From positions 779 through 64,778 of IMG/VR virus record IMGVR_UViG_3300015063_000001: a DNA stretch of 64,000 nucleotides, one strand, 5' to 3'. A program made the position numbers and the translations under genes. This DNA comes from a virus. The notes under the pieces are model-generated. The model did not search any database. It worked only from the letters and a program-made list of their open reading frames with translations, and was not told where the DNA came from. Below, one piece after another: positions 48,416-63,520 of the stretch (within the stretch, counting starts at the first letter, position 1; every line of letters starts with the position of its first letter).

Positions 48416-51400
48416 ATGGCATCCCTTGATGACAGTGGCGATTGGGAAGACGTGTCTTCCCCTACGCCGCCTTCTGGTCTCAGCGCTGCGGCGCCATCGC
48501 CCCAACCTGCCGCCGCGCCGGCACAGGCCAAGGCGCCGGCCGCACAGGTGGCCGGCGGCGACGAATGGGAGGATGTCCCGCAGTGGCGGGGGTATCTGCC
48601 TGTCGCCGCGTCCGCCGTGGCCCAAAGTGCCGTTTCCTCGACTGGGTCTCTGCTCGCCGGCCTACCGGAACTGAGCGGGGACTATAATACCAAATTGCTG
48701 GCGAACCTCGATCGCATCGACCGCGGCGAAAAAGTGCCGATGGCTGATGACCCGATCGGCTATCAGGACATGGATCCTGAAACCCGCAAGCACACCAGGG
48801 CTGACGTCGAGGCGGCAAAGGCGGCTTACAAGCCGCAGGAAACGATGCTCTACAAAGCCGGCCACGCGATTAAAGAGTTCGGGGAAAAGCAGTTCCCGAT
48901 GTCGCTGGACGAACAGAAGTCGATCACGGCACAGGCTGCCGGCGTAGTCGGCGGCATGGCACCTTACCTCGCCGCCGGCGCTGTGCTCGGCCCAGAAGCC
49001 GCCGTAGGTCTCGGTATGGCCGGCATGGGCCTTTCCAGTGCCCATGAACAGGCGGAAGCCGCTCGAGCGAAAAACGCCTCGCCGGAAGCGGTGGCCGAAG
49101 CCGCGCGCATGGGCTTCTACAGTGGTGCCGCCGCGGGCGCGGTGCCGCTGCATGCCGTGATGACGCCGGTCGAACGGCTGGCGCCTGGCATCGCGGATTG
49201 GGCGCGGGCGCGGCTTCAACATGCGGCGCAGACCGGCGTTGCCTTTGCCACGCTTGGCGAAGCGCAGACCTGGCTCGGTCAACAGATCGCACAGAATTTT
49301 TATGATCCGGAGGCCGGCTACTCGCTCGATATTCAGCGCGTGCTCGGCGGCCTGCTCGGTGGTGCCTTCCTGGGTGGTATGGGTCGTACACCGTATCGCG
49401 GTGCCGAACAGCCGGCCGCGGAGAAGCCGAATCAGCACTCCGATGCCATTCAGGATATTCTCGGTGGTGAACCGCCTGGACCGCCAGCACCTCCTGGTGC
49501 TCCCGCTGTGGAGCCTGGAGAGCGTCGGCCGTACCCGGCCGAAGATGACGTTTCAATTCTCGGTGGCGATCGGCCAACCGGCGTTCCAAATGTCGACGAC
49601 TACGTTGACCAGTCGATGCGTAACCTTCGCGCGACGTCGCGCACGGTTGCCGGAACGCTGGATACCTCGTCGACCCCAGGCAAGGAAGAGAAGCTTGTTG
49701 ATGGCCTGACGCCCAAGGCTGCCGCGACACAGGCCGCCTCAAATTACGAAGGCATCGTTCGCCGGCTGTACGATTACAAAGACGATATCCCGACCACCGG
49801 CCCGGAAATGGGGACGCTGGTTAATGACGTCGCCGTTGCTGTAAACAATGGCATCGTCAAGCCGGGCCAGTTGGAGCGCACGACCAACACAAAATTCCCG
49901 ATGCAGACCAGGGCGGAGGATCTTCCGATTGCCTATGGTCAATTCTCTCAGGAATTGGCCGAGCGCCTTTCAAACCCTGCTGCGGATCCGGTCGAGACCG
50001 CGGCATGGATTGAATGGCGCGCAAACATGCTGGACCATTTCTGGACGGATGGCGTCGGCAAAACGTCGAAGGCGCTGGCGGCGATTCCTTTGATGCGGAG
50101 CGGCTTGCCGCTTCCGATCTATCCGCCGATGAAAGACTTTGTTGCGTTCGCCAAGGAACAGCCGCGCGTTGATCCGCTTGAAGGTGGCGCGGCATATCTC
50201 GGGCCGGCGTGGGAAAAATTCAATGCGTTCTACCACGACATGGTTTACCCGCAGAAAAGCCTGCAGGCCGCGCTTGATCGTGGGGCGACCGCCGACGAGC
50301 TAAGTCAGCATCCCATGGTGCTCAATGCCGTGGCGGAAAACAGCAGTCGTGTTCCAACCGGAACACCGGAGGATTTCCAGAACCCGGAATGGCGCAGCCA
50401 GCGCGTTTACAACATTAGTGGTCAGCCCGTCAGGGGTTGGGATGCCGCTGTTTCTGCCCTGACGAATCAGGCCAGCGCATATTCCGGTGGTCAGGTCGAG
50501 CATGGGCGCCATGCCGTCATTGTGCTCGGGCCCCCGGCTGCAGGCAAGTCGTCCATTTCGGAACCTGTTGCGCGGAAATATCGGGCCGCGATCGTTGACC
50601 CCGACGACGCGAAAAAGATCATTCCTGAATATCACAACGGCCTCGGCACCAGTGCTGTGCATGAGGAAAGCTCTGAACTCGCGATCGACGTCCTTAAGAA
50701 CATTGCGCGCGACGGTGGCAACATCGTCTTGCCAAAAGTAGGAGCGAGTGCCGATGGCATAAAGAAACTGGTTAACCGCTTGAAACAGTTGGGGTATACG
50801 GTCGATATCGCCCATGTGGCGGCTACACCAGAGATTTCGGCCCGGCGGAACATCGCTAGATTTCTGAATACCGGACGGCTTGTTAAGCCAGAATATATCA
50901 CTGAGGTAGGTGACAAGCCGCGCAAAACGGCCTATATGTTAAGGGGAGATGCAAATGACTTCATTGACGCCGACACATCCAAAGGCCACTACGAACTCGT
51001 CGAAGGAAACGGGCCGCTCGCCGACATTTTCCGAGATGGAAGAAATTTCGGACAAGGCGCAGATTCGGGCACTGGACGAGCTCTTGGCCGAGCGGAATCA
51101 GAAAAAGGACTGACCGGGGAGCAGGTCCCCGGCATTCCTGAACATCGCGTGACCGCTGCCGACGGCACGGCTATCGATGTCGCGCCGATCGTTGTCGAGG
51201 CATCGAGTCTCAGGACCTCTCAGGATCCCGGCTACGATACCAGCCTGCAGCCGCGGCAGCGCGATCGAGCCGCCAGCCAGGCACAGGTCCGCGACATCGC
51301 CACCAATCTCGACCCAGAACGTCTTGGCTATTCGGCCGAGGCTGATCGCGGGGCGCCGATTGTCGGACCTGACGGCATGGTGGAAAGCGGCAACGGCCGT

Positions 51401-54400
51401 GTGCTCGCGCTCCGAAGCGTTTACGAGCAAGGCGGACCGCAGGCACAGGCCTATCGGGATTGGCTGACGCGCCAGGGCGTCGACGTCTCCGGCTATCAGA
51501 ACCCGGTTTTGGTCCGGAAGCGCGTCACGCCGATGTCGCCACAGGAGCGGCGGTCGTTCACGGTCGCCGCGAACCAGGCCTCAACGCTCAGTATGTCGGC
51601 GCCGGAACGGGCGATGGCCGATGCGCGGCTGATGGATGCGCGGTCGATCGGCTTAATACGCAACGCAGAAGATATCGGCGCCCCTGCAAATCGTGACTTT
51701 GTTCGGCGTTTCGTTTCGCTGTTGCCGCAGGCTGAACAGGGGGCGATGGCTGATGCGCGCGGCGCCTTGTCGGCGGAAGGTCTGGCGCGGGTGCGTAATG
51801 CTGTGCTCGCGAAGGCCTACGGCGATGCTAGCGTTTTGGCGCGCATTGCGGAGTCGACGCACGATGAAGTCCGGTCGATTTCCAACGCCTTAACTGCCGC
51901 GGCGCCTGAGTGGGCGCGGATGCGCTCCGAAGTCGAGGCCGGCCGCGTCCGGTCTGATATGGACGCCACCCCTGATCTGCTCGAGGCAGTAAAGCGCACC
52001 GCAGATATTCGCAGCCGTGGCGAAAAGCTTGAAAACTATTTGGCGCAGCAAGACGCCTTCGACAAGATGCCGGCGCAGGTCGAGGCATTCATGCGAATGT
52101 TCTACGACCCGAAGGGCAATCGGGCAGCGGCGGCGATGCGGATTGCCCGCGCGCTGCGGCTCTATGCTCAAGAGGCTGCAAAAGTTAATGCCGATGAAGG
52201 GCTTGGTTTAGGCTTGGTCCCGGTGAAGCCGCGCGATATAACGCGGCTCGCCCTAGAACGGGAGTGGGAAGATTATGAACCAGATGCGGGAGTTTCCGAC
52301 CGCGGCGGCCTTGGTGACCGCACGGGCGGCGAAGAAGCTGGCCGGGCAGTACGGGGACCTTGGCTTGGCGAGGGCCGCAAAGGATCTCGAGAAGAGGGCT
52401 ATGGAGGCGATCAAGAATCGGCAGTCCGTGCTCAGCGACCAGAGCGCCCATTCAGCCTCAAAAACCTAACGACCGTTCCTGGTGTTGAGCAAGTCGATCT
52501 TGCCGGCGGGAAAAAGGGCGATCAATACGTCTTCCCAGGCACCGAAAAGATTTCCGCGGCCGAGCTTATGCGCCGGCGCGCGGCGGAGCCGATGCGGCCG
52601 AAGGTCGAGCAGAACACTACCGCTAGTGGCCTGTTCGGCGATGGGGCACAACAGCTAAGCCTGCTCGATGCCGCGAGGAAGGCTGCCGCAGAGCCCGTTG
52701 ACAAAGGTCCCATTGTACCCCAAATAGAGGGAACGGAGGCTGCAAATGCAAGTCGCGGAGAACCCGAAAGCGGCGGCATACGCACAGGAACACAAGAGGT
52801 TCCTGGAGGAAAACCGGCCGGACGTGCTCGCCGGGCTACGCCGATCGGGCGACCTGAACAGCTATCTCTCTTCGGTGGGGGAGCAGGCGAGCGATCTGTT
52901 TTTGACGCTAATGATGCAGTACAAAAACAGCCCGGAAATACGGAAGCTCCCGCACCTGGCGCTAGTACAAGCGTTACAAAGCCGCCGGAGGGAAGCCGAC
53001 GAGTTGGTGAGGCACGACATAATCCACCAGCCGTTGAAGGACTGAACGAAGCGCAGACCAAGATTGCGCAGCGCTCCCGCTCGAATTACCGAATTACTGA
53101 TGCCGACAAGATTGGCGAAGGTGGCCCGCGCCAGAAGATTCGCGGCAACCTCGAGGCAATCCGTATCCTCAAGACCATTGAGGATGAAAACCGCGATGCC
53201 ACGCCTGGCGAAAAGGCAGCCCTTGTGCAGTACGTCGGCTGGGGCGCCTTCGCGCAAGATATGTTCGCGCCGCACAAGACGGAATTGAAAGCGGAACGCG
53301 ATACGCTGCGATCGCTGGTCACCGATGAAGAGTTCAACGCGGCTCGAGGGTCTACACTAAACGCGCATTTCACGTCGCCTGACGTCGTCCGCGGCATGTG
53401 GGATGCCATCAATCATCTCGGCTATGACGGCGGGATGGCGATCGAGCCGGCGGCCGGCGTCGGCCATTTCATCGGCATGATCCCGGATAAGGTGGCGCCG
53501 AAGACGGCTTGGACGGCGGTTGAGCTCGACCCGCTTACCGGCCGTATCGCAAAGGCGCTCTACGGAAACGCCGAAGTCAACGTTCACGGCTTTGAGGACT
53601 TGAAGCGGCCATCGAACTATTACGATCTCGCGATCTCGAACGTTCCGTTCGGCAATTACAATATTTCGGAAAAGCCGTATGGCTCGTTTCCGATCCATGA
53701 TTTCTTTTTCGTCAAATCGCTCGACAAGGTTCGGCCCGGTGGCGTCGTCGCATTTGTGACGTCGCGCTACAGCATGGACCGCGTCGACGCCAACACGCGC
53801 CGGCTACTCGGCAAGACGGCCGATCTGGTCGGGGCCATCCGGTTACCTGGCGGCAACAAGGGCGCCTTTGCCGGCAATGCCGGGACGCAAGTCACCACCG
53901 ACGTCATGTTTCTTCGCAAGAAGATTCCGGGCGAGGCGCCGTTCCCCGGCGCCAACTGGTTTGACCTGAAAGAAATCCAAACCCCGGACGGCCCGACGAA
54001 AATCAACGAATATTTTGCCGATCATCCTGAAATGATGCTTGGTGAAATGCGGTTGCAGAGCACCATGTACCGGGACAATGAACCGGTGCTTATTGGTGAC
54101 GCCGAAGGCCTGCAGGACAGGATTGCCGCCGCGGCGCAAAACATGCCGAAGGGCGCCTTTGTCGCTCGCGACACCCCGCCGCCGCCGCCTATCCACGGCA
54201 ACGATATCGCGGCCGGCATCAAGGATGGCGCCTTCTTCTTGCAGGACGGCAAGCTGCACCAGCGCCGCGAGGGGCAGGGCTTTGCTCATCCGCTCAACGC
54301 GGAGGACCACGACCGCGTTACGCGGCTCGTCGGCATGCGCGACGTCGTCAACGATCTGTTGGCGACACAGCTTGCCGGCGGTGAGAACTCGGCAGCGCAA

Positions 54401-57400
54401 GCCGAACATGGCCGCGCCAAGCTGCGGGATGCTTATGATGCCTTTGTCGCCAAACACGGGCCGATCAATAAGGAAGAGCGCACCGTAACCAGCCGGCTTA
54501 ACAAGCTTGGCGAACCGGTGACAATCACTCGGTATCCGAACATCGCTAAGTTCATGGCGGATCCTGACGCTTGGAAAGTTGCGGCGATCGAGAACTACGA
54601 CACCGAGACCGGAAAGGCGAAGCGGGCCGATATCCAGACCAAGGATGTCATCGACGCGCCGATGGAACGCCAGATCAACGGGCCGTCCGATGCTCTGGCG
54701 GCTTCGTTGGACTTCACCGGCGGCGTCGATCTCGACCACATCGCACAGTCTCTCAATTTACAGACGCAGGAAGACGTCGTTCGCCATCTTGGCGATTTGG
54801 TCTACCAGAACCCGGACGGCCGGAAATGGGAGACCGCCGATAGTTACCTGTCCGGCGACGTGGTCAAGAAGCTTGATGATGCCCGCGCCATCGCCGCCGA
54901 AGACACGTCGTATATGCGCAACGTGTCAGCGCTCGAAAAGGTCCAGCCGGAGCCGTTGACCGGCTCAGACATCACGGCGCAGTTCGGGGCGCCATGGGTT
55001 CCAGGCGACGTCTACGAAAGCTTCCTCAAGGAAATCGGCGGTCAGGGCGTCAAGGTCAAGCTGGTCCCGTTGACCGGGGAATGGCGGTCAAGCGCCACGA
55101 TGTATTCCCGCGATGCCAGAGCAAAATATGGAACGGATCGTGTTGAGACAGCAAAGATAGTCGATGCCGCCCTCAACAATAGGCAGATCACGGTTTGGGA
55201 TGAGCACAGCGATGGAAGCAAGTCAGTCAACGAAAAGTCTACCACGGAAGCCAGGGTTAAGACCGAACTGCTGAAAGAGACGTTCACCGGCGACCAGGAA
55301 CACGGCATCGACGGCTGGGTGTTCGCAGATCCGGAGCGCGGCCAACGGTTGGAGGCGATCTACAATCGCACATACAACAACCTTGTGCAGCGCAAGTTCG
55401 ACGGCACGCACCTGACGCTGCCTGGGCTCAATCCTGATTTCGCGACACGCCAGCACCGCAAGGATGCAGTTTGGCGGATCGTCCAGAACGGCAACACGTT
55501 GCTTGCACACGACGTCGGGACTGGAAAAACCGCGACAATGATTGCGGCGGCGATGGAGCAAAAAAGACTTGGCTTAATTAATAAGCCGATGATGGTTGTT
55601 CCAAATCATATGTTGGAACAGTTCTCGCGCGAGTTTATCCAGGCGTATCCAGACGCTAAGATTTTGGTCGCGCAAAAAGACGAGATGACCAGGGAGAACC
55701 GCAAGGCGTTTCTGGCGCGCGTGGCGTCCAACGATTGGGACAGCGTCATCATTACGCATGATGCCTTCGGTCGCATTAACATGGGGCAGGAGTTCCGCAG
55801 GGCCTTCATCCGCGACCAACTCGACGAATTGGATCGGGCCATTAAGGCGGAAGCCGCTGAAAGCGATAAGAAGTCGCCGACGGTAAAGAGCTTGGAAAAG
55901 GCAAAAAAGAAGCTGCAGGGGCGGCTTGAAAATTTGATGAATGAAGAGCGCAAGGATGCTGGGACCAATTTTGAAGAATCCGGCGTCGATAATCTCTTCA
56001 TCGATGAAGCGCATTGCTTCCCATACAATACGATGGTCCAGACAGATCGCGGTCCAATCAAAATTGGTGAGATCGTTGAGAGGCAACTATCGGTTTCTGT
56101 CGCCAGCATAGATCACCGGACCGGTCGCCTTATATGGAATCCGATCCACAATTATTGGCGGCACAATCGCGGCAATAAGCAGTTTGTGCTTGTAAAAACC
56201 GATAAATCTGACATACTTTGCACAGTCAATCATCGAGTATTTGTGGATGGGCGAGGGTATGTCAGGGCAGATGAAATCAAGCCGGGAGAGGCTTTGCGCG
56301 CTTTGCCAGAGGCCGTTTGTGCCAGCGTCGCGCGGCAGACTTGGGAATACCCAGAAGCATTGCTCGCGCCAGTGTGCGAAAACGGCAGCCAAGAAACTAG
56401 TAGAAAAGAATTGCGAACTGTGCGGCGAGCCGTTTCAGTTTCGCAGTTCTGGAAAGACGAACAACGACAAGCGACGGTTTTGCGGCAGTCCATGTGCGGC
56501 GTCATGGCGGATGGCGCAGCCTGGGCGGATGGAGAAGTCCGCGCCGATGTGGGCCGCTTCGCGGAAGAAATGGTTGGAGCCAGAATACAAGGCCATGATG
56601 GCGTCGGCATCATCAAAAAGAATGCTTGCCGACAACCCGATGTCAAACGCGGATATCCGGCAGAAAGTCAGCGTGTCGCTGAGCGGGCGGACTTTTCTAT
56701 CTCGCGGCGGCAACGGCCAGCCGACGAAGCCGCAGTTGCTACTGCATGGCTTGACCGGTCTTCCCATGGAATATGCAATACTGACGAAGCCAGTGCACGG
56801 TCGATTTCAGAGTCTGCCGCAATGCTACAAGGTGGATTTGGCGGACCCGGTGCGCAAGTTGGCTATAGAGGTGGACGGCAACAGCCATCGTTCTCGGAAA
56901 TGGAAGTTTCTGGACCGACGCAAGACAGAAATACTGAATGCGCTCGGGTGGTCAGTGTTGAGATTCTCGAACGAGGAAGTGATCGCGAACCCAGAACTGG
57001 TGGTTCAGAAGATAGCTTCGTTTATGATCTCGGCGTCGCCGGCGAGCACAATTATTTCGCCAATGGAGTCCTAGTCCACAACTCGTTCAAGAACCTAGCT
57101 TTTATAACTCGTATGCAGCGCGTCAAGGGCTTGGCGCAGGGTGATAGCCAGCGCGCCGAAGACCTGTTCCTCAAGATTCAATACTTGGAACAGAAGCGGC
57201 CGGGGCGAGCGGCGGTGTTTGCCACCGGGACGCCGGTCTCTAACACGATGGCCGAGCTTTGGACGATGCAGCGGTATTTGAACCTGCGTGCGTTGAAAGA
57301 GCGCGGACTGGATACGTTCGATTCCTGGGCTTCGACCTTCGGCCGCGTCGTCAACAATATGGAATTGTCGGCTGACGGTCGCACCTTCAAGGAGGTGTCG

Positions 57401-60400
57401 TCGTTCTCGAAGTTTGTCAACGTGCCGGAACTGGTGTCTCTGTATTCAGAGATCGCAGATACAAAAACGGCGGACATGCTGAAACTGCCGACGCCGGATG
57501 TCAAAACCCGCAGCGGGGCGCCCGGCATCGAGATCGTCCAGGCGGAGCCTTCTTCCCAGGAAGAAGCGCACATCCAGAAATTGGTCGAACTCGCGGAATC
57601 GCTCAAAGGCAAGCGCCCTGAAAAGGGCCAGCCGAACATGCTGAGCGTGGTGACGGAAGGCCGCAAGGTCGCCACCGATGGTCGGCTGATTTCGCCTGAT
57701 TTTGATTTCAACCCGCAGGGCAAGATCGCCCTGGGCGTCAACAATATCCATCGCATATGGGAAGAGGGCAACGCTGACCCGTCGGCGCCGAACAAGGTGC
57801 AGATGGTGTTCCTCGACATGGGCGTACCGAAGAGCAAGGCCGCGGCAAAGAAGAAGCCGGCTGACGTCGATCTCGAGGAAGGTGCCGACCCGGCACAGGA
57901 AGCGGCGCCGCGCATCGACCTGTACGCCGACATCAAGAAGCGCCTTGTCGACGCCGGCATCCCGGCGAAAGAGATCGCAGCAATTCATGACGCGACGGAC
58001 GACGACAAGAAGGCAAAACTGTTCCAGAAGGTCCGCAACGGTGAAGTCCGGGTTATCTTGGGATCATCCGGAAAGATGGGCGTCGGCACAAACGTCCAAG
58101 ACAAACTTATCGCGATGCACCACTTTGACGCACCGTGGAAGCCAGCGGATGTCACGCAGCGCGACGGCCGTATCGTGCGGCAAGGCAACAAGAATAAGGA
58201 CGTGCAGATCTACCGCTATGTCACGAAGCGCTCTTTCGACGCCTTCATGTGGCAGAAGCTTGACACCAAATCGAAGTTTATCGGGCAGGTTTTGTCGGGG
58301 GCGAAGGGCTCCCGCCACGCCGAAGACATCGACAACCCGCTGCCGGAAGCTGCGGAAATGAAGGCGGCCGCGTCTGGTGACCCGCGGATTATAGAGCACG
58401 CCGAACTCGATCGCCAGGTCCGCGCCTTGTCGGCGCAGCGTAGATCGTTTGACGCGACGAAATCGCGGGCGCAGTGGGAAACCGGAACGGCAAAAACCCG
58501 TATTCAGGGATACGAGGACGCATTGCCGAACGCCAAGGCCGATGCTGCCAGCGTGCAGGATTTGGCCGGCGACAAGTTTAGCGCTGAGCTCGGCGGCTCG
58601 GTGGTGACTGATCGCAAGGTGGCCGGGCAGGCAATCCTAGATCGGTTATTGGCTGTTGATGCCCGCACCTTCTACACGCCGAAGATTGTCACGCTCGGCA
58701 AGCTGTCCGGCTTCGATATGAACGTCGAACTGCGTGGCGGCTGGGATGGCTCGTCGGCCATTCTGCGGGCGCAGCCGTCACTCAAAGGCAAGAGCGGCTA
58801 CGGCACGCCGAACGATACGGTCATTAATGCGCAGACCGATCCCGGCGGCTTGATCCGCCGGTTTGAAAATATCCTCGGTAACATCCGGCAGAACCCGGAC
58901 CGGTTGGAACGCGAGTTGGCCGGCGAAAAGGACAGCGTTGCGAAACTCGAAAAGACCTTGGGCGAGACATGGCCGAAGGAAAATGATTACCGCGCCGCGC
59001 TGGATAAGCTTCATGCGCTGAGCGAGTCGTTGAAGGCGCCGAAGCATCCCGACGTCTTTACGGAAGAGGTGAAGGAGCGCCGCGGCGGCTGGGATCAGGC
59101 CGAAGGCCGCGACATGGGCCCGAAGCTTGGCGAGACCGCCGTTCGTATCGGGGCAAAAACGGAAGCCCATATCAAGCCGACCGAGCGCTACACGGCGGCT
59201 GAGAAAAAGATTGCCAACGCTGTTGCCGAGATCGGTCAGCGCATGGCGCCGCAGGCCGACGTCAGGGGCGCAGCCGCGCTCCGGCAGAACGGCAATCAGA
59301 TATGGGGTGCCTTCGTCAACAGCGAGGCCTTCCCGCACCTTGTCGCGTGGTCTCTCGAAAAGGGCAGTCCGGCCCAGATTGCCGGCACGGTGCGCCATGA
59401 AATTGTCCATCATCTCCGTGAGGCCGGTTTGATCCGTCCGAACGAATGGGCGGCATTACGCGATGCGGCGGTCAAGGATGACTGGCTCGGCAAGCATAAC
59501 ATCGAGGACCGCTATCCGGACCTTTCAATGGACCGCAAGGTGGAAGAAGCCGTTGCCGAACAGTTCTCAAAATGGCGCACTGAACGGTCGATCGAAAAGC
59601 CAGGCCTGATCCGGGACGCCTTCCAGCGGATCGAATTGCTGTTCCGCCGTGTGGCTGCGGCGGCGCGCAGCTTCATGGGCAAGGATGCCACCGCCAATGA
59701 CGTCTTCACTAGGATTGAAACCGGCGAAGTCGGCGCTCGCCATTCCGACCAGATCGAGGCGCAGAAGCGGTATTTGGCACAAGACAACCGCGAGGCCGCG
59801 CAGACGCCGGGCGAAGAGAACCGGAAGCGGCGCGAGTTTGCGCGCGGTTTGCCCGGCGCGGAGCCGACCATTCGTGATAGGATAGTGCAGGCTGCCGATG
59901 CTCTGCGGGCTAAGGCGGCCGAGTTCTCTGAGAAGATTGGCGTCGATCAAATCGTCCGTGACATGCAGATGCGCGTGGCGCCGATGGCGGCGCGTGACGC
60001 CACCGTGCAGTCCCGCGCGATCGCCAAGGAGTTCATCAACGCGCGCCGGCAATCCAGGCAATCCTGGAATGCCGCCGACAAATACATCATGGACAATTTC
60101 CCGCCGGAGCGCCGCAAGGCTATGTGGGATGCCGCTGACGAGCAAAGCGTTGCGATGCAGCGCGGCCGGTCGACGGTGGGGATCGGCCTCGACCGTCTGC
60201 CACCGGATGAACGGCGTGTTGTCGAAATGCTGCAGGCCCGTGGTGAGCGCAATCTGAAAGACGCCAACGATCTCGGTATGATCGAAAGCGAAGGCCTTCC
60301 GAGCTACGCGCCGCGCATGGTGGTCCGCATGGCGGAAGGCAAATACGAGCATGGGGCTGGCCCCGGTGCCGAAGTGGTTCGTGACGTCCGAACCTTGGCG

Positions 60401-63400
60401 CTCGCCAACGCACGGCTCGAAGACGCCATTGCGGCGCGGCGCCTTATCAACTCTATCGAGGAAGTCGGCAAAAGGAGTGGTAACCCGACCGTCAACGATG
60501 GCGGGGCTCCGACGCGCAAGATTGGTGCGGAAGGCCAAATCGCGAATGTTCTCGACCAGATCGGTCGCGGCGTCTCGACGTCGACGCCGCAGTTGAAGCA
60601 CCGCAAGTATCTGACGACGGAAGAAACCGAAGCGGCGGCCAATAAGGTTCCGGTGGCCGATAAGAATGCCCCGGATTGGTTCACGCTCAATCACCCGGCG
60701 TTTACGAAGCTTATGCCGCGCATGACCGACTCTGACCCGAAAACCTATCGGGATGCAGTCAAGCGCGTCAGCGGCATGACCGTCGAAAACAAGCAGGTCC
60801 CGGCCCGCGATGAAGACGGCAATATCATCTATGACCGCAAGCCGATTTACGTCCGGGCCGATTTCGAGGGTCCGCTTCGCGCCGTTCTTTCCAAGGACAC
60901 CGACCGCACCTACCGCGCCTTGATGGCCCTCAAGGGCAAGGTGATGTCGGTTATCATGATGTCGCCGCTTATCCACAATCAAGTGGAATGGGGCCGCGCG
61001 CTGCCGGTGGCACCTGGCAAGGTGGTCACGTTCCAGACCTATCTCGAGGGCAACAAGGTTGCCAACGATCCGAAACTTATGAACCGCGCCATTGCTGGTG
61101 GCGTCGTCCCGATCGGCGGACACGGCTATATGCAGGATATCGTGTCGATCGCGGAAGCGCCGACGGTGCGGCCTGGCCGGTCGTTGACGGCCAAGGGCTT
61201 GGGCTACGGCGCCGAAGGCCTCGGGTATCTGACGCGGCTTTATAACCCGCGCTCAGGCGCTAATGAAGTTCGCAATGCCGTCGATTGGTTCGGAAACGTT
61301 TGGCACAACCGGATGCTTTGGGACCGCATTCGTGACCTGCAAATGGGTCTGTGGTCGCACGTCAATGAAACTATGGTCGGTAAAGGATATGATCCTTATA
61401 GCGCCAACGTGGCGGCGGCACACTTTGCAAACCGATATGCCGGCGCACTGCCGATTGAAGCGATGTCTGGCATCGCCCGCGGCATTGCCAACGTCTTGCT
61501 GTTCTCGCGGAGCTTCACGCTCGGCAACCTAGGCGCCTACAAGGACGCCATCCTCGGGCTGCCGCGTGACGCACAGGCGATGATCCAGCAAAACGTCGGA
61601 TACGCCGAATTACAGAAGGTTCAGAGTTACGTGAAACGAAAGTCGCTGGCGATGCTGGCGATCGACGCCGGGCTTTATTACGCGACATTGTCGGCCCTGC
61701 AGAGCGCGTTCAACGTGGCCGGCGTCGGCCATACCGTCAGCACGCTCGGCGGCATGATTGCCGGCGGCGCCCTTGGCGGCAAAGGCGGCACGTTCGGCCG
61801 GTTGGCTGCGGCGGCGGGTATGGGCGCGGCCGGGTTCGGGCTTGCCAGCGTTCTCGGCGCGTCAAAGGGTACCCGCGATCTTGAGGACGAGCTCGGCCGG
61901 TACTGGACCAGGTTCTCCGATCTGCTTGGTCGTGTTGGCGAGCATCCGTTTGAAACGATTGGCAACCCGTTCAAGATGCTGGAGTCGCTCGGCTCGACTG
62001 CGGAAAATGAGCCCGGCAAGAAGAGCCGCCTGCTGATCGGCTACCAGCCTGACGGCACGGCGATCTACGCGCGCCTCGCGGTCGGCAAGGTCACAGAAGA
62101 GTTGATGGGCTACATGACCGAGCCGAACGAGATGCTTCATCGTAAGCTGAGCACCTTCGCCAGACCGTTGTCGCAACTTTATAATAACGACGCCGGCTTT
62201 GGGCATCCGGTGTATGACAAAAAAGCTGATACGCCGTACGCTGTCACGAAGAACATTATCAAAATTGCCGCCCTGATTGTCGGTGACCAGATACCGGTCG
62301 ACACCATCAAGGGTGCCATGGACTGGTACGGCGGCGGACCGGGCTCCGAAGTGTCTGGCATGAAGGCGATCGCGCCGTTCATCGGCACGACGATCTCAAA
62401 GGGCTTCCCTGGTGGGCCCGAGCTCGGCGTATTGCAGGACGCAAAGGATCGGCAGAAATACCGAGTGCAGGAAGCGTTGCCCGGCATCCGCGAGCAAATC
62501 AAAAAGGGCGATACCGAAGGCGCAGTAGCCAAGATGGAAGAACTGCATATCCCGCGCGGGCTGCAGGGCTACTACATTCGCACGACGCAAGACCCGGCAT
62601 CGCGGCTCTCCAAGCGCGAGATGCACGATTTCATGCAATACGCCTCGCCGGACGAACAGCGCGAGTATGAGAACACGCAGCGGAACAGGCCGACTACGGA
62701 CGGCTCGGCACCGAAGCGCGCCGATGGCGGAAAGGTGGAGGCTGACTACGACACCGCGCTAACGCCGGATGAAGAGGCAAGCTTCCAACAGTGGAAGGCG
62801 GACAATGCACCGCACGATTCTGGCGCGGACTATGACCTCCGTGGTGCGTTCAAGGCCGGCCTGTCGCCCGCCGCCGATGGTCATTGGGATGACACCTTCA
62901 AAAAGCCGAACCATCCGACTTTCAGCATCTATTCCAAATATGCGAAGGATCGGCCGGAGTTGGCCGGGACATGGAATGGCGATCAATACATCCCGCCCGT
63001 TCCTGCCCGCGCGCACGGCGGCCGCGTCGAGGCGGCAAACATCAATCACAATCCGACTGAGGCGCAGAAGCACGCCGGCAACTACGCAAAAGATCACGTA
63101 AGAATCCACGGCCACGACATCACCATCGAGAACGCCAAAGGCAAACGCCGGCACGGCGTTGGTCAAGACGGCAAGCCATGGTCCGCCGTGCTCGGGGCAC
63201 ACTACGGGTATTTTAAAAAATCTGAGGCCAGAGATGGCGATCATGTCGACTGCTACCTCGGCCCGCACATCAAGTCCCCGCACGTCTTTGCCATCGATCA
63301 AGTCGACCACAGGACCGGCAAATACGACGAAGCAAAAATCTGTCTTGGTTTCGCAAACGAAAAGCAGGCGTTGCGCGCCTATGAGGCCGGGTTCTCGGAT

Positions 63401-63520
63401 GGCAAAGGCCGCGATCGCATCGGCAAGGTGCACGCTATGACCGTGCCGCAGTTCCGCGCGTGGCTGAAACACGGCGATACAAAGCGGCCGTTCCGGCATG
63501 TGGAGACGGCCGAAACCTAA
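48416..63520 (+). CDS. giant (5034 aa) virion-associated polyvalent protein: Fic-like, zeta-toxin-like kinase, ddrB-ParB, N6-adenine methyltransferase plus SNF2 helicase (DarB-like, with intein), zincin metallopeptidase, InPase-like
   Basis: HFWTDGVGKTSK; GPPAAGKS; VESGNGR; EPAAGVG and NVPFG; HDVGTGKT and DEAH; RHEIVHH...EEAVA; PTEAQKHAGNY...DGDHVDCY. Confidence 0.92.
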   Translation: MASLDDSGDWEDVSSPTPPSGLSAAAPSPQPAAAPAQAKAPAAQVAGGDEWEDVPQWRGYLPVAASAVAQSAVSSTGSLLAGLPELSGDYNTKLLANLDRIDRGEKVPMADDPIGYQDMDPETRKHTRADVEAAKAAYKPQETMLYKAGHAIKEFGEKQFPMSLDEQKSITAQAAGVVGGMAPYLAAGAVLGPEAAVGLGMAGMGLSSAHEQAEAARAKNASPEAVAEAARMGFYSGAAAGAVPLHAVMTPVERLAPGIADWARARLQHAAQTGVAFATLGEAQTWLGQQIAQNFYDPEAGYSLDIQRVLGGLLGGAFLGGMGRTPYRGAEQPAAEKPNQHSDAIQDILGGEPPGPPAPPGAPAVEPGERRPYPAEDDVSILGGDRPTGVPNVDDYVDQSMRNLRATSRTVAGTLDTSSTPGKEEKLVDGLTPKAAATQAASNYEGIVRRLYDYKDDIPTTGPEMGTLVNDVAVAVNNGIVKPGQLERTTNTKFPMQTRAEDLPIAYGQFSQELAERLSNPAADPVETAAWIEWRANMLDHFWTDGVGKTSKALAAIPLMRSGLPLPIYPPMKDFVAFAKEQPRVDPLEGGAAYLGPAWEKFNAFYHDMVYPQKSLQAALDRGATADELSQHPMVLNAVAENSSRVPTGTPEDFQNPEWRSQRVYNISGQPVRGWDAAVSALTNQASAYSGGQVEHGRHAVIVLGPPAAGKSSISEPVARKYRAAIVDPDDAKKIIPEYHNGLGTSAVHEESSELAIDVLKNIARDGGNIVLPKVGASADGIKKLVNRLKQLGYTVDIAHVAATPEISARRNIARFLNTGRLVKPEYITEVGDKPRKTAYMLRGDANDFIDADTSKGHYELVEGNGPLADIFRDGRNFGQGADSGTGRALGRAESEKGLTGEQVPGIPEHRVTAADGTAIDVAPIVVEASSLRTSQDPGYDTSLQPRQRDRAASQAQVRDIATNLDPERLGYSAEADRGAPIVGPDGMVESGNGRVLALRSVYEQGGPQAQAYRDWLTRQGVDVSGYQNPVLVRKRVTPMSPQERRSFTVAANQASTLSMSAPERAMADARLMDARSIGLIRNAEDIGAPANRDFVRRFVSLLPQAEQGAMADARGALSAEGLARVRNAVLAKAYGDASVLARIAESTHDEVRSISNALTAAAPEWARMRSEVEAGRVRSDMDATPDLLEAVKRTADIRSRGEKLENYLAQQDAFDKMPAQVEAFMRMFYDPKGNRAAAAMRIARALRLYAQEAAKVNADEGLGLGLVPVKPRDITRLALEREWEDYEPDAGVSDRGGLGDRTGGEEAGRAVRGPWLGEGRKGSREEGYGGDQESAVRAQRPERPFSLKNLTTVPGVEQVDLAGGKKGDQYVFPGTEKISAAELMRRRAAEPMRPKVEQNTTASGLFGDGAQQLSLLDAARKAAAEPVDKGPIVPQIEGTEAANASRGEPESGGIRTGTQEVPGGKPAGRARRATPIGRPEQLSLFGGGAGERSVFDANDAVQKQPGNTEAPAPGASTSVTKPPEGSRRVGEARHNPPAVEGLNEAQTKIAQRSRSNYRITDADKIGEGGPRQKIRGNLEAIRILKTIEDENRDATPGEKAALVQYVGWGAFAQDMFAPHKTELKAERDTLRSLVTDEEFNAARGSTLNAHFTSPDVVRGMWDAINHLGYDGGMAIEPAAGVGHFIGMIPDKVAPKTAWTAVELDPLTGRIAKALYGNAEVNVHGFEDLKRPSNYYDLAISNVPFGNYNISEKPYGSFPIHDFFFVKSLDKVRPGGVVAFVTSRYSMDRVDANTRRLLGKTADLVGAIRLPGGNKGAFAGNAGTQVTTDVMFLRKKIPGEAPFPGANWFDLKEIQTPDGPTKINEYFADHPEMMLGEMRLQSTMYRDNEPVLIGDAEGLQDRIAAAAQNMPKGAFVARDTPPPPPIHGNDIAAGIKDGAFFLQDGKLHQRREGQGFAHPLNAEDHDRVTRLVGMRDVVNDLLATQLAGGENSAAQAEHGRAKLRDAYDAFVAKHGPINKEERTVTSRLNKLGEPVTITRYPNIAKFMADPDAWKVAAIENYDTETGKAKRADIQTKDVIDAPMERQINGPSDALAASLDFTGGVDLDHIAQSLNLQTQEDVVRHLGDLVYQNPDGRKWETADSYLSGDVVKKLDDARAIAAEDTSYMRNVSALEKVQPEPLTGSDITAQFGAPWVPGDVYESFLKEIGGQGVKVKLVPLTGEWRSSATMYSRDARAKYGTDRVETAKIVDAALNNRQITVWDEHSDGSKSVNEKSTTEARVKTELLKETFTGDQEHGIDGWVFADPERGQRLEAIYNRTYNNLVQRKFDGTHLTLPGLNPDFATRQHRKDAVWRIVQNGNTLLAHDVGTGKTATMIAAAMEQKRLGLINKPMMVVPNHMLEQFSREFIQAYPDAKILVAQKDEMTRENRKAFLARVASNDWDSVIITHDAFGRINMGQEFRRAFIRDQLDELDRAIKAEAAESDKKSPTVKSLEKAKKKLQGRLENLMNEERKDAGTNFEESGVDNLFIDEAHCFPYNTMVQTDRGPIKIGEIVERQLSVSVASIDHRTGRLIWNPIHNYWRHNRGNKQFVLVKTDKSDILCTVNHRVFVDGRGYVRADEIKPGEALRALPEAVCASVARQTWEYPEALLAPVCENGSQETSRKELRTVRRAVSVSQFWKDEQRQATVLRQSMCGVMADGAAWADGEVRADVGRFAEEMVGARIQGHDGVGIIKKNACRQPDVKRGYPAESQRVAERADFSISRRQRPADEAAVATAWLDRSSHGICNTDEASARSISESAAMLQGGFGGPGAQVGYRGGRQQPSFSEMEVSGPTQDRNTECARVVSVEILERGSDREPRTGGSEDSFVYDLGVAGEHNYFANGVLVHNSFKNLAFITRMQRVKGLAQGDSQRAEDLFLKIQYLEQKRPGRAAVFATGTPVSNTMAELWTMQRYLNLRALKERGLDTFDSWASTFGRVVNNMELSADGRTFKEVSSFSKFVNVPELVSLYSEIADTKTADMLKLPTPDVKTRSGAPGIEIVQAEPSSQEEAHIQKLVELAESLKGKRPEKGQPNMLSVVTEGRKVATDGRLISPDFDFNPQGKIALGVNNIHRIWEEGNADPSAPNKVQMVFLDMGVPKSKAAAKKKPADVDLEEGADPAQEAAPRIDLYADIKKRLVDAGIPAKEIAAIHDATDDDKKAKLFQKVRNGEVRVILGSSGKMGVGTNVQDKLIAMHHFDAPWKPADVTQRDGRIVRQGNKNKDVQIYRYVTKRSFDAFMWQKLDTKSKFIGQVLSGAKGSRHAEDIDNPLPEAAEMKAAASGDPRIIEHAELDRQVRALSAQRRSFDATKSRAQWETGTAKTRIQGYEDALPNAKADAASVQDLAGDKFSAELGGSVVTDRKVAGQAILDRLLAVDARTFYTPKIVTLGKLSGFDMNVELRGGWDGSSAILRAQPSLKGKSGYGTPNDTVINAQTDPGGLIRRFENILGNIRQNPDRLERELAGEKDSVAKLEKTLGETWPKENDYRAALDKLHALSESLKAPKHPDVFTEEVKERRGGWDQAEGRDMGPKLGETAVRIGAKTEAHIKPTERYTAAEKKIANAVAEIGQRMAPQADVRGAAALRQNGNQIWGAFVNSEAFPHLVAWSLEKGSPAQIAGTVRHEIVHHLREAGLIRPNEWAALRDAAVKDDWLGKHNIEDRYPDLSMDRKVEEAVAEQFSKWRTERSIEKPGLIRDAFQRIELLFRRVAAAARSFMGKDATANDVFTRIETGEVGARHSDQIEAQKRYLAQDNREAAQTPGEENRKRREFARGLPGAEPTIRDRIVQAADALRAKAAEFSEKIGVDQIVRDMQMRVAPMAARDATVQSRAIAKEFINARRQSRQSWNAADKYIMDNFPPERRKAMWDAADEQSVAMQRGRSTVGIGLDRLPPDERRVVEMLQARGERNLKDANDLGMIESEGLPSYAPRMVVRMAEGKYEHGAGPGAEVVRDVRTLALANARLEDAIAARRLINSIEEVGKRSGNPTVNDGGAPTRKIGAEGQIANVLDQIGRGVSTSTPQLKHRKYLTTEETEAAANKVPVADKNAPDWFTLNHPAFTKLMPRMTDSDPKTYRDAVKRVSGMTVENKQVPARDEDGNIIYDRKPIYVRADFEGPLRAVLSKDTDRTYRALMALKGKVMSVIMMSPLIHNQVEWGRALPVAPGKVVTFQTYLEGNKVANDPKLMNRAIAGGVVPIGGHGYMQDIVSIAEAPTVRPGRSLTAKGLGYGAEGLGYLTRLYNPRSGANEVRNAVDWFGNVWHNRMLWDRIRDLQMGLWSHVNETMVGKGYDPYSANVAAAHFANRYAGALPIEAMSGIARGIANVLLFSRSFTLGNLGAYKDAILGLPRDAQAMIQQNVGYAELQKVQSYVKRKSLAMLAIDAGLYYATLSALQSAFNVAGVGHTVSTLGGMIAGGALGGKGGTFGRLAAAAGMGAAGFGLASVLGASKGTRDLEDELGRYWTRFSDLLGRVGEHPFETIGNPFKMLESLGSTAENEPGKKSRLLIGYQPDGTAIYARLAVGKVTEELMGYMTEPNEMLHRKLSTFARPLSQLYNNDAGFGHPVYDKKADTPYAVTKNIIKIAALIVGDQIPVDTIKGAMDWYGGGPGSEVSGMKAIAPFIGTTISKGFPGGPELGVLQDAKDRQKYRVQEALPGIREQIKKGDTEGAVAKMEELHIPRGLQGYYIRTTQDPASRLSKREMHDFMQYASPDEQREYENTQRNRPTTDGSAPKRADGGKVEADYDTALTPDEEASFQQWKADNAPHDSGADYDLRGAFKAGLSPAADGHWDDTFKKPNHPTFSIYSKYAKDRPELAGTWNGDQYIPPVPARAHGGRVEAANINHNPTEAQKHAGNYAKDHVRIHGHDITIENAKGKRRHGVGQDGKPWSAVLGAHYGYFKKSEARDGDHVDCYLGPHIKSPHVFAIDQVDHRTGKYDEAKICLGFANEKQALRAYEAGFSDGKGRDRIGKVHAMTVPQFRAWLKHGDTKRPFRHVETAET
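50949..51113 (+). CDS. nested +1-frame ORF overlapping the end of the zeta domain (candidate antitoxin)
   Basis: SD AAGGGGAG before ATG 50949/50955; MQMTSLTPTHPKATTNSSKETGRSPTFSEMEEISDKAQIRALDELLAERNQKKD* (manual translation). Confidence 0.55.
   Translation: MQMTSLTPTHPKATTNSSKETGRSPTFSEMEEISDKAQIRALDELLAERNQKKD
52275..52469 (+). CDS. nested +1-frame ORF, small helical protein
   Basis: 53 of 64 codons end in G/C in this frame, versus about half in the host frame; GGAG upstream. Confidence 0.65.
   Translation: MNQMREFPTAAALVTARAAKKLAGQYGDLGLARAAKDLEKRAMEAIKNRQSVLSDQSAHSASKT
52746..53045 (+). CDS. nested +1-frame TnpV-like protein
   Basis: SD GGAGG with 6-nt spacer; Y...HKRFLEENRP...L..SGDL..YL..V.EQA...A.E.V..DII fits the TnpV pattern. 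Confidence 0.75.
   Translation: MQVAENPKAAAYAQEHKRFLEENRPDVLAGLRRSGDLNSYLSSVGEQASDLFLTLMMQYKNSPEIRKLPHLALVQALQSRRREADELVRHDIIHQPLKD
56015..57082 (+). mobile_element. class 1 intein (356 aa) inserted directly after the helicase DEAH motif
   Basis: Block A CFPYNTMV, block B CTVNH, block F VYDLGV...HNYFANG, block G VLVHN/S; removal restores IDEAH-SFKNL. Confidence 0.93.
56241..57074 (+). CDS. zinc-ribbon plus Vsr/DUF559-like endonuclease in the +1 frame, entirely inside the intein
   Basis: CALC, CSRQC, CELC, CGSPC; YKVDLAD...LAIEVDGNSH...DRRKTEILNALGWSVLRFSNEEV; alternative ATG starts at 56259 and 56271. Confidence 0.85.
   Translation: MWMGEGMSGQMKSSRERLCALCQRPFVPASRGRLGNTQKHCSRQCAKTAAKKLVEKNCELCGEPFQFRSSGKTNNDKRRFCGSPCAASWRMAQPGRMEKSAPMWAASRKKWLEPEYKAMMASASSKRMLADNPMSNADIRQKVSVSLSGRTFLSRGGNGQPTKPQLLLHGLTGLPMEYAILTKPVHGRFQSLPQCYKVDLADPVRKLAIEVDGNSHRSRKWKFLDRRKTEILNALGWSVLRFSNEEVIANPELVVQKIASFMISASPASTIISPMES

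Follow-up and report, generated by a model that had tools for sequence, protein, structure and literature searches.

The window examined here, a stretch of 64,000 nucleotides (nt) covering positions 779 to 64,778 of the IMG/VR virus record IMGVR_UViG_3300015063_000001, comes from an 81.6-kb viral contig which was assembled from a soil metagenome. Its plus strand contains a continuous open reading frame (ORF; 48416..63520) for a polyvalent phage protein of 5034 amino acids (aa). Within this host gene lies a predicted intein (56015..57082), and the intein contains, in another frame of the same strand, a putative homing endonuclease gene (HEG; 56241..57074). In the following, the frame of the 5034-aa ORF is referred to as the host frame and the frame of the nuclease as the +1 frame.

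The N-terminal half of the host protein shows Pfam domains of a Zeta-toxin-like kinase (aa 700-831), ddrB-ParB (aa 916-1036) and SNF2/ResIII, and the C-terminal half those of Helicase_C and InPase (~aa 4880-5020), which is overall the architecture of a polyvalent protein. The SNF2 helicase is divided by the intein. The codons of helicase motif II/Walker B, that is, DEAH (GAT GAA GCG CAT; 56003..56014), form the N-extein junction and would be the left half of the homing site.

In the host frame, the intein consists of 356 codons, from C1 to the final HN. C1, a feature of class 1 inteins, is the TGC codon at 56015, directly 3' of DEAH, and it is invariant in an alignment of 44 host-frame sequences. 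In the same alignment, the TxxH of block B (TVNH, residues 70-73) has an invariant H73 and a T70 which is at least 90% conserved. The C-terminus of the intein is ...VYDLGVAGEHNYFANGVLVHN|S (i.e., it ends in VLVHN and is followed by SFKNL), and the Ser directly after the intein end (TCG, 57083..57085) is the +1 extein nucleophile. Throughout the family, (H/S)N|(C/S) is found at this end. The scores of the splicing profiles are all above the curated cut-offs: 49.4 bits versus 35.8 for Intein_splicing (PF14890), 38.9 versus 24.5 for intein_Nterm (TIGR01445) and 28.3 versus 15.6 for intein_Cterm (TIGR01443).

The intein was modeled with AlphaFold2 and 43 host-frame homologues. Residues 1-100, that is, the Hint N-terminal splicing region including block B (56015..56314), have pLDDT (predicted local distance difference test) values of 92-98. 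Residues 305-356, that is, the Hint C-terminal splicing region with the strand RVVSVEILE and blocks F and G (56927..57082), have values of 70-97, with the exception of a short loop (325-330). These confident parts align to the Mtu RecA mini-intein (2imz/2in0) with a Z of 21 and a root-mean-square deviation of 1.6-2.0 Å over 136-138 of ~140 residues. Over ~residues 110-300, pLDDT is 41-58 and mostly <50. This part of the host frame (filler, 56342..56926) is the off-frame reading of the nuclease gene; it is free of stops and gave no family match besides Hint in profile searches and with the Pfam and TIGR models. The complete fold match, combined with the low pLDDT of the center, indicates that the splicing domain is complete and that the host-frame middle is not a folded domain.

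Based on profiles and model, 56015-57082 is a complete class-1 intein placed after the DEAH of an SNF2-type helicase module. It differs from a canonical full-length intein in that its nuclease is located in the +1 frame and no endonuclease domain was found in the host frame, and from a split intein of a fractured gene in that the host frame is unbroken from 48416 to 63520. Protein splicing is probable in view of the intact residues, the position inside DEAH and the cultured phages which are viable with the same element in a helicase. The preliminary description of the window, which was made from its letters alone, had already recognized a complete C...HN/S intein in the DEAH motif with a stop-free center lacking nuclease motifs, and its view of the off-frame reading as junk agrees with an unstructured center that would leave with the intein.

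The +1-frame ORF has 277 codons (56241..57074). Its stop codon (TAG, 57072-57074) is located 8 nt before the intein end, and the gene thus overlaps blocks F and G. Four candidate starts are present, namely TTG 56241, ATG 56247, ATG 56259 and ATG 56271, and among them ATG 56259 has the best conservation support in the family comparison. Close to the N-terminus, four CxxC/CxxxC pairs (C19/C22, C41/C45, C58/C61 and C81/C85) make up two predicted zinc ribbons (residues 19-85, 56295..56495), with a match to the zinc-ribbon family DUF2256 (25.9 bits vs. a cut-off of 25). Residues 190-260 (56808..57020) form a DUF559/Vsr-like core of the EDxHD type, and the score for DUF559 (PF04480) is 51.8 bits versus a cut-off of 20.6.

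The model of the +1 protein, produced with 39 homologues, reaches a mean pLDDT of 88.8. The closest solved structures in Foldseek are the homing endonuclease I-Bth0305I (3r3p, template modeling score 0.68 by target), the DUF559 protein 3hrl and the E. coli Vsr (1vsr). At the sequence level, 3hrl is matched with an E-value (E) of 5e-5 and I-Bth0305I marginally (E 0.93). Across 40 nuclease homologues, D199, E210, D212 and H216 never vary, and D225 shows a conservation of at least 90%; we infer that these residues correspond to the published EDxHD positions. The window nuclease carries every family-invariant residue and its ORF is intact over all 277 codons.

The Cys motifs, the Vsr/DUF559 type of the nuclease and the position of its stop had thus been read correctly from the bare sequence. 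On the contrary, the NUMOD3-like helix proposed at that stage was not recovered: residues 95-165, between the zinc ribbons and the core, form a confident helical segment in the model, and no NUMOD family in Pfam matches them even at E up to 10.

Related loci and their insertion sites

Loci were gathered from metagenomes, IMG/VR and GTDB genomes, and the extended architecture is represented by 106 of them (95 distinct). A 90%-clustered collection contains 178 homologues of the nuclease at E up to 1e-5, and among 1.84 billion representatives at 50% identity 98 clusters match it at E up to 1e-30. Exact peptides of the window nuclease found nothing in viral contigs, while alignment-based scans did find relatives.

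In all 106 loci the nuclease gene is +1 to the host ORF, and the other register was met in none. The host ORF spans the nuclease gene in 102 of these loci; three of the exceptions are ended by the contig edge (L004, L035 and L074) and the fourth, L046, is frameshifted near the intein end. Hint-N and Hint-C matches are located in the host ORF on both sides of the nuclease gene, wherever those parts are on the contig. Matches to plain DUF559 only have no host ORF spanning them.

The carriers include many phages and also metagenome-assembled genomes (MAGs) or isolates of Chloroflexota, Proteobacteria, Firmicutes, Acidobacteriota, Patescibacteria, Planctomycetota and one Thermococci archaeon. The same intein with a +1 nuclease is found in the two cultured phages that were checked in detail, that is, in gp10 of Vibrio phage CP-T1 (L171, NC_019457.1 6842-9823) and in gp43 of Corynebacterium phage phi673 (L172). 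Their host genes are annotated only as "putative helicase" and "DNA helicase," respectively, and the nuclease gene is unannotated. Pseudomonas phage MR14 and a set of Vibrio lentus phages have matches inside helicase-type genes, which in the V. lentus phages are annotated as "coil containing protein." In two contigs (L003:394-1958 and L004:95-3216), the nuclease ORF was called and the helicase restarted after it, resulting in a truncated host gene. Both contigs end near the 5' side of the intein, possibly because assembly breaks at a presence/absence polymorphism of the intein.

A few loci depart from this pattern. L169:516-3606 (P0031; MAG contig JBIGLD010000963.1) was considered as an in-frame fusion of Hint-N and nuclease, and this was rejected due to several frame changes on the contig. 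Its N-extein, its Hint-N with the nuclease, and its Hint-C with the C-extein each occupy a frame of their own, and the nuclease lacks the first zinc ribbon; the locus is read as a decayed copy or an error-prone MAG assembly, and no true in-frame form. In L109:1759-3396, from a Lutibacter MAG, Hint-N and Hint-C share the same frame with stops between them, and the nuclease gene is placed between them in +1. This may be a fractured-gene (split-intein) form of the family, but a contig coverage of 0.7x is too low to be relied on. The nuclease also has free-standing relatives, that is, L170 (52% identity), L099 and L107. The first of them (L170:3501-4160, Massilia aurea) has one zinc ribbon and is located outside any intein; the integrative/mobilisable element on which it is found also carries genes for integrase, Mob_Pre and resolvase.

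All inserts are placed at Walker B/motif II, with the junction after DE (DE|CH...), after DExH (DEAH|S, DEFH|C) or one residue later. The exteins form 21 clusters, including SNF2/HARP helicases, helicase-methylase fusions, a clamp-loader ATPase of the DNA_pol3_delta2 type and terminase large subunits. The composite is thus also found at the Walker B of P-loop nucleoside triphosphatases that are not helicases, namely in the clamp-loader-type ATPase of L062, L079, L090 and L095, and in the terminase large subunit of L055 and L069. A nuclease identity of 50-60% is also seen between loci in which the exteins share 20-30% identity or do not align at all. This suggests that the composite element may have moved between Walker B motifs, switching exteins via the shared hhhhDE motif.

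Among the closest relatives, the presence of the intein is sporadic. In detail, L002, with 85% C-extein identity to the window, contains it, whereas L165 (78%), L166 and L167 (70%) and L168 (50%) are intein-less. The intein-less relatives read DE(A/S)H-(F/K/L)-FKNL. One diverged contig of 536 nt and low depth from the source soil (run X1, record 2) joins 55956 to 57085 with 60 replacement letters, which means that exactly 1068 nt, the length of the intein, are missing from it. This gives a weak hint that an intein-less relative coexists in the source sample, weak because it comes from a single contig in which the shorter flank of the join has just 22 matching bases.

Since the +1 register is common to all 95 distinct related loci, the composite element most likely came to the window locus as a unit. 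Its more remote origin by the invasion of a mini-intein by a free HEG fits with the existence of free-standing relatives of the nuclease. Invasion, as suggested in the preliminary description, is kept as a possible origin of the family and not as a local or recent event. The additional idea that the arrangement uncouples homing from the production of a 5034-aa virion protein is not supported, as the same arrangement occurs in ordinary helicases of 700-1300 aa, in a clamp-loader-type ATPase and in terminases.

Constraint on the two overlapping frames

The differences in 89 pairs of relatives were counted by nuclease codon position. Positions 1, 2 and 3 show 5514, 4932 and 8935 differences, respectively, and across the same bases amino-acid identity is 65% in the nuclease frame versus 44% in the host frame. 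For the window and its closest relative, L002, the respective counts are 62, 66 and 128. These patterns support the reading of the +1 ORF as a separate nuclease gene under purifying selection. The G+C content at third codon positions in the center of the intein is 0.676 for the +1 frame and 0.489 for the host frame, and 0.698 in the exteins; the composition of the center therefore follows the +1 frame.

The situation changes where the nuclease gene overlaps the Hint-C coding region. There, third-position divergence is 0.31, down from 0.43, and host-frame identity rises to 60% with nuclease identity still at 66%, which indicates that both proteins are constrained. In the window, the dual-coded stretch is located at ~56927-57074 (~148 nt, the final ~49 codons of the nuclease). 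The bases that encode LGWSVLRF, the nuclease motif with the highest conservation, give the Hint strand RVVSVEILE in the host frame. This dual coding of the nuclease C-terminus may lock the register.

In order to estimate the number of host-frame stops expected by chance, the nuclease codons were resampled synonymously with the phage's own codon usage, and the gene's own codons were also permuted. Both resamplings give 8-10 expected stops across the nuclease gene against 0 observed, and the probability of 0 is at most 5e-5. For a host-frame stop to arise, a nuclease codon with a final T must be followed by one that begins with AA, AG or GA. In these risky contexts, T is used in 0 of 67 cases in the window versus 41 of 203 in other contexts, and in 0 of 6783 cases across the family versus 26.6% elsewhere. 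On this codon evidence, the open host frame is maintained purely by synonymous codon choice in the nuclease gene.

In the +1 register, the number of host-frame stops can be brought down to 0 in all family members. The window protein could not avoid 3 or more stops in the other register, where the mean minimum of the family is 2.8. Silent changes at nuclease third positions suffice to clear each stop in the +1 register because NNT and NNC are always synonymous. We infer that the +1 register is explained by the genetic code, as silent T-to-C changes clear the stops at no amino-acid cost.

Proposed mechanism and its alternatives

The locus is very probably a composite mobile element, consisting of a class-1 Hint domain with a +1-frame HEG in its endonuclease-insertion loop. 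The further parts of this model, that is, splicing, the independent translation of the nuclease and its start site, the cleavage specificity and homing, are predictions. Ribosomes on the giant host gene would read through and produce ~200 residues of unstructured filler between the Hint halves. The whole intein would then splice out, restoring DEAH-SFKNL, and the filler would leave with it. The nuclease would be made separately by internal initiation in the +1 frame, with ATG 56259 as the best candidate. Its parts would be the two zinc ribbons, a helical DNA-binding region and the DUF559/Vsr-like core. It would cut intein-less alleles at the motif II coding sequence, and the repair of the break would copy intein and nuclease gene together.

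Regarding the start of the nuclease, an ATG is found shortly upstream of the first CxxC in 84 of 91 loci, at a median of 9.5 codons. The column of ATG 56259 is the commonest position (26 of 94 loci) and falls within the Gly-Tyr-Val codons of the last Hint-N strands. The window also contains, at 56207-56266, a 10-bp inverted repeat (TCTGACATAC ... GTATGTCAGG) which is able to pair across ATG 56259 and the preceding GAGG. A start-codon hairpin (56207-56221 with 56251-56266, sequestering ATG 56259) was rejected as a family feature: its z in the window is weak (-1.64), the mean z in the 26 loci sharing ATG 56259 is 0.03, and pairing does not exceed that of a control window.

Several points weigh against a nuclease that is separately translated and active in the window. 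The position of the start varies across the family. The only GAGG near ATG 56259 lies 2 nt upstream of it, closer than is normal for a Shine-Dalgarno sequence; the same GAGG lies 14 nt before ATG 56271. The other candidate starts in the window have no Shine-Dalgarno sequence at a useful spacing, and there is no sigma-70-like promoter on the plus strand inside the intein. Moreover, ribosomes may initiate very inefficiently at an internal site of a 15-kb ORF that is itself being translated, and the amino-acid conservation of the nuclease across the family is no proof that the window copy is active. None of the sequencing runs listed for this stretch is recorded as RNA. With the upstream ATG kept in most loci, internal initiation appears to be the likeliest route to the nuclease.

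Some of these points bear on the alternative that survives best, which is nonetheless unlikely. According to it, the +1 ORF is a relic in the window phage: the element came by homing, its nuclease has since lost expression or activity, and splicing alone maintains the intein. In its favor, none of the candidate starts has a good ribosome-binding site or promoter, homing-cycle theory expects decay after fixation, and some relatives are degenerate (the frameshifted L169, L046, and L109, whose host frame is broken). However, the ORF is intact over 277 codons with all family-invariant residues and a pLDDT of 88.8, and the 62/66/128 differences from L002 point to purifying selection along the window lineage. 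In addition, intein-less targets are still present in close relatives.

A programmed +1 ribosomal frameshift, which would produce the nuclease as a fusion to the N-extein and Hint-N with no internal initiation, is less probable still. In its favor, both overlapping frames belong to one strand, the nuclease frame is already free of stops from 56196 onward, upstream of any start codon, and the support for starts by Shine-Dalgarno-like sequences is poor. Against it, 84 of 91 family members keep an ATG just upstream of the first zinc ribbon. No conserved sequence or hairpin was found at a fixed site, and neither host-frame stops nor known shift motifs are present. The product would also be a truncated fusion of 2600 aa without Hint-C.

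Out-of-frame HNH insertions without splicing have been described in phage methylases (PMC11855218), and the insert could by analogy be a hidden nuclease insertion of the ShiLan type, tolerated in the helicase as a non-splicing loop. This is highly improbable, given the complete Hint fold of the window intein and the conservation across the family of C1, T70 and H73, of His and Asn at the last two positions, and of the +1 Ser/Cys. Furthermore, the site splits the catalytic DEAH motif, and an insert of 356 residues should abolish ATPase activity.

An assembly or sequencing artefact, by which two compensating indels would hide a nuclease that is truly in frame, is conceivable for a metagenome-assembled viral contig, but it is refuted for practical purposes by the recurrence of the register in 95 distinct, independently assembled loci and in the genomes of isolates, by contigs from a second sample of the same study which are identical across the intein with 0 indels, and by the probability given above for the open host frame. 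X2 and X3 leave portions of the stretch uncovered and carry no information on this point.

Known systems and significance

Inteins with the endonuclease in another frame or on the other strand go back to Gorbalenya 1998, as cited in preprints of the Gogarten laboratory. Gosselin, Arsenault and Gogarten (bioRxiv 10.1101/2025.01.02.630785) described actinobacteriophage inteins with out-of-frame or antisense homing endonucleases. Similarly to the window, these inteins are contiguous, the endonuclease gene is located between the splicing blocks in another frame and the filler is spliced out; an origin by invasion of a free-standing HEG was proposed, and a VSR-like nuclease has an HHpred link to 3R3P. 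Their VSR-like genes are antisense, however, and the out-of-frame case on the same strand is endonuclease VII-like. Their hosts are the polymerase, minor capsid, terminase and thymidylate synthase genes of actinophages, whereas the window family is same-strand and +1, combines zinc ribbons with DUF559, and is placed at the Walker B of helicases in many phyla.

A cyanobacterial dnaX intein with an out-of-frame LAGLIDADG endonuclease was described by Phillips, DeSimone and Gogarten (bioRxiv 10.64898/2026.09.14.751524), who cite Gorbalenya 1998 for its first mention. It shares with the window the overlapping-frame endonuclease, the position just after Walker B and the disordered in-frame reading. 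The endonuclease frame is likewise under purifying selection, and alleles that lack the intein coexist with alleles that have it. It differs in being LAGLIDADG, restricted to one host gene and phylum and described as a rarity, whereas the window family has 21 extein clusters and a nuclease core that is dual-coded with Hint-C.

In the fractured genes of Dassa et al. 2009 (PMC2677866), split inteins have a free-standing Vsr-like or GIY-YIG HEG between their halves. The Vsr-like nuclease is located there on the same strand between the Hint-N and Hint-C coding regions, and its 3' end overlaps Hint-C coding by 6-69 bp, compared with ~148 nt in the window. In those genes, stops interrupt the host frame and the intein acts in trans, whereas the host frame of the window is continuous and splicing would occur in cis.

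I-Bth0305I (2011, PMC3239194; PDB 3R3P), which defines the EDxHD family, is the best structural match of the window nuclease. Both have an N-terminal DNA-binding region, a C-terminal Vsr-like core, and conserved acidic and His residues. I-Bth0305I is found in a group I intron of recA, however, with NUMOD2/helix-turn-helix motifs and no zinc ribbons, and by sequence DUF559 is closer to the window nuclease. The hidden HNH insertions of the ShiLan type (Arsenault et al. 2025, PMC11855218), which are found in phage methylases, resemble the window in having an out-of-frame nuclease gene in a stop-free host ORF; they lack a splicing domain, whereas the window gene is flanked by a complete Hint domain.

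Whether the arrangement had been reported was left open in the preliminary description. The concept of an out-of-frame intein endonuclease is already published, with other nucleases, and what appears to be new is the combination of nuclease type, strand and register. A full-text literature search on intein and DUF559 gave no description of this arrangement, and no report was found in the literature of contiguous Walker-B inteins in which a zinc-ribbon/DUF559 gene is located on the same strand in +1.

The family is notable for its size, uniformity and hidden nature, the concept itself not being new. Gene callers systematically miss such genes, and in two ways, either by keeping the helicase and dropping the nuclease (as in CP-T1 and phi673) or by calling the nuclease and truncating the helicase (as in L003 and L004). 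In the annotation of the window, the 5034-aa ORF should remain whole and the +1 gene should be added. The family also offers a natural case of long-term dual coding with a simple rule in the genetic code, for which cultured carriers exist, and it has a bearing on how inteins acquire endonucleases and how fractured genes arise.

We lean toward the view that this is perhaps the largest and oldest intein family with an overlapping gene in a fixed register. Its zinc-ribbon/DUF559 HEG would always be +1 to Hint, in a register that silent T-to-C changes can clear, with the core dual-coded with Hint-C. The composite would move among the Walker B motifs of unrelated P-loop nucleoside triphosphatases (superfamily 2 helicases, clamp loaders and terminases) of phages, bacteria and archaea, and annotation would overlook it even in classic phages such as CP-T1. 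Out-of-frame intein endonucleases have been called rare in recent preprints, and the window family suggests that they can be widespread. If this view is true, such endonucleases would be common and not rare.

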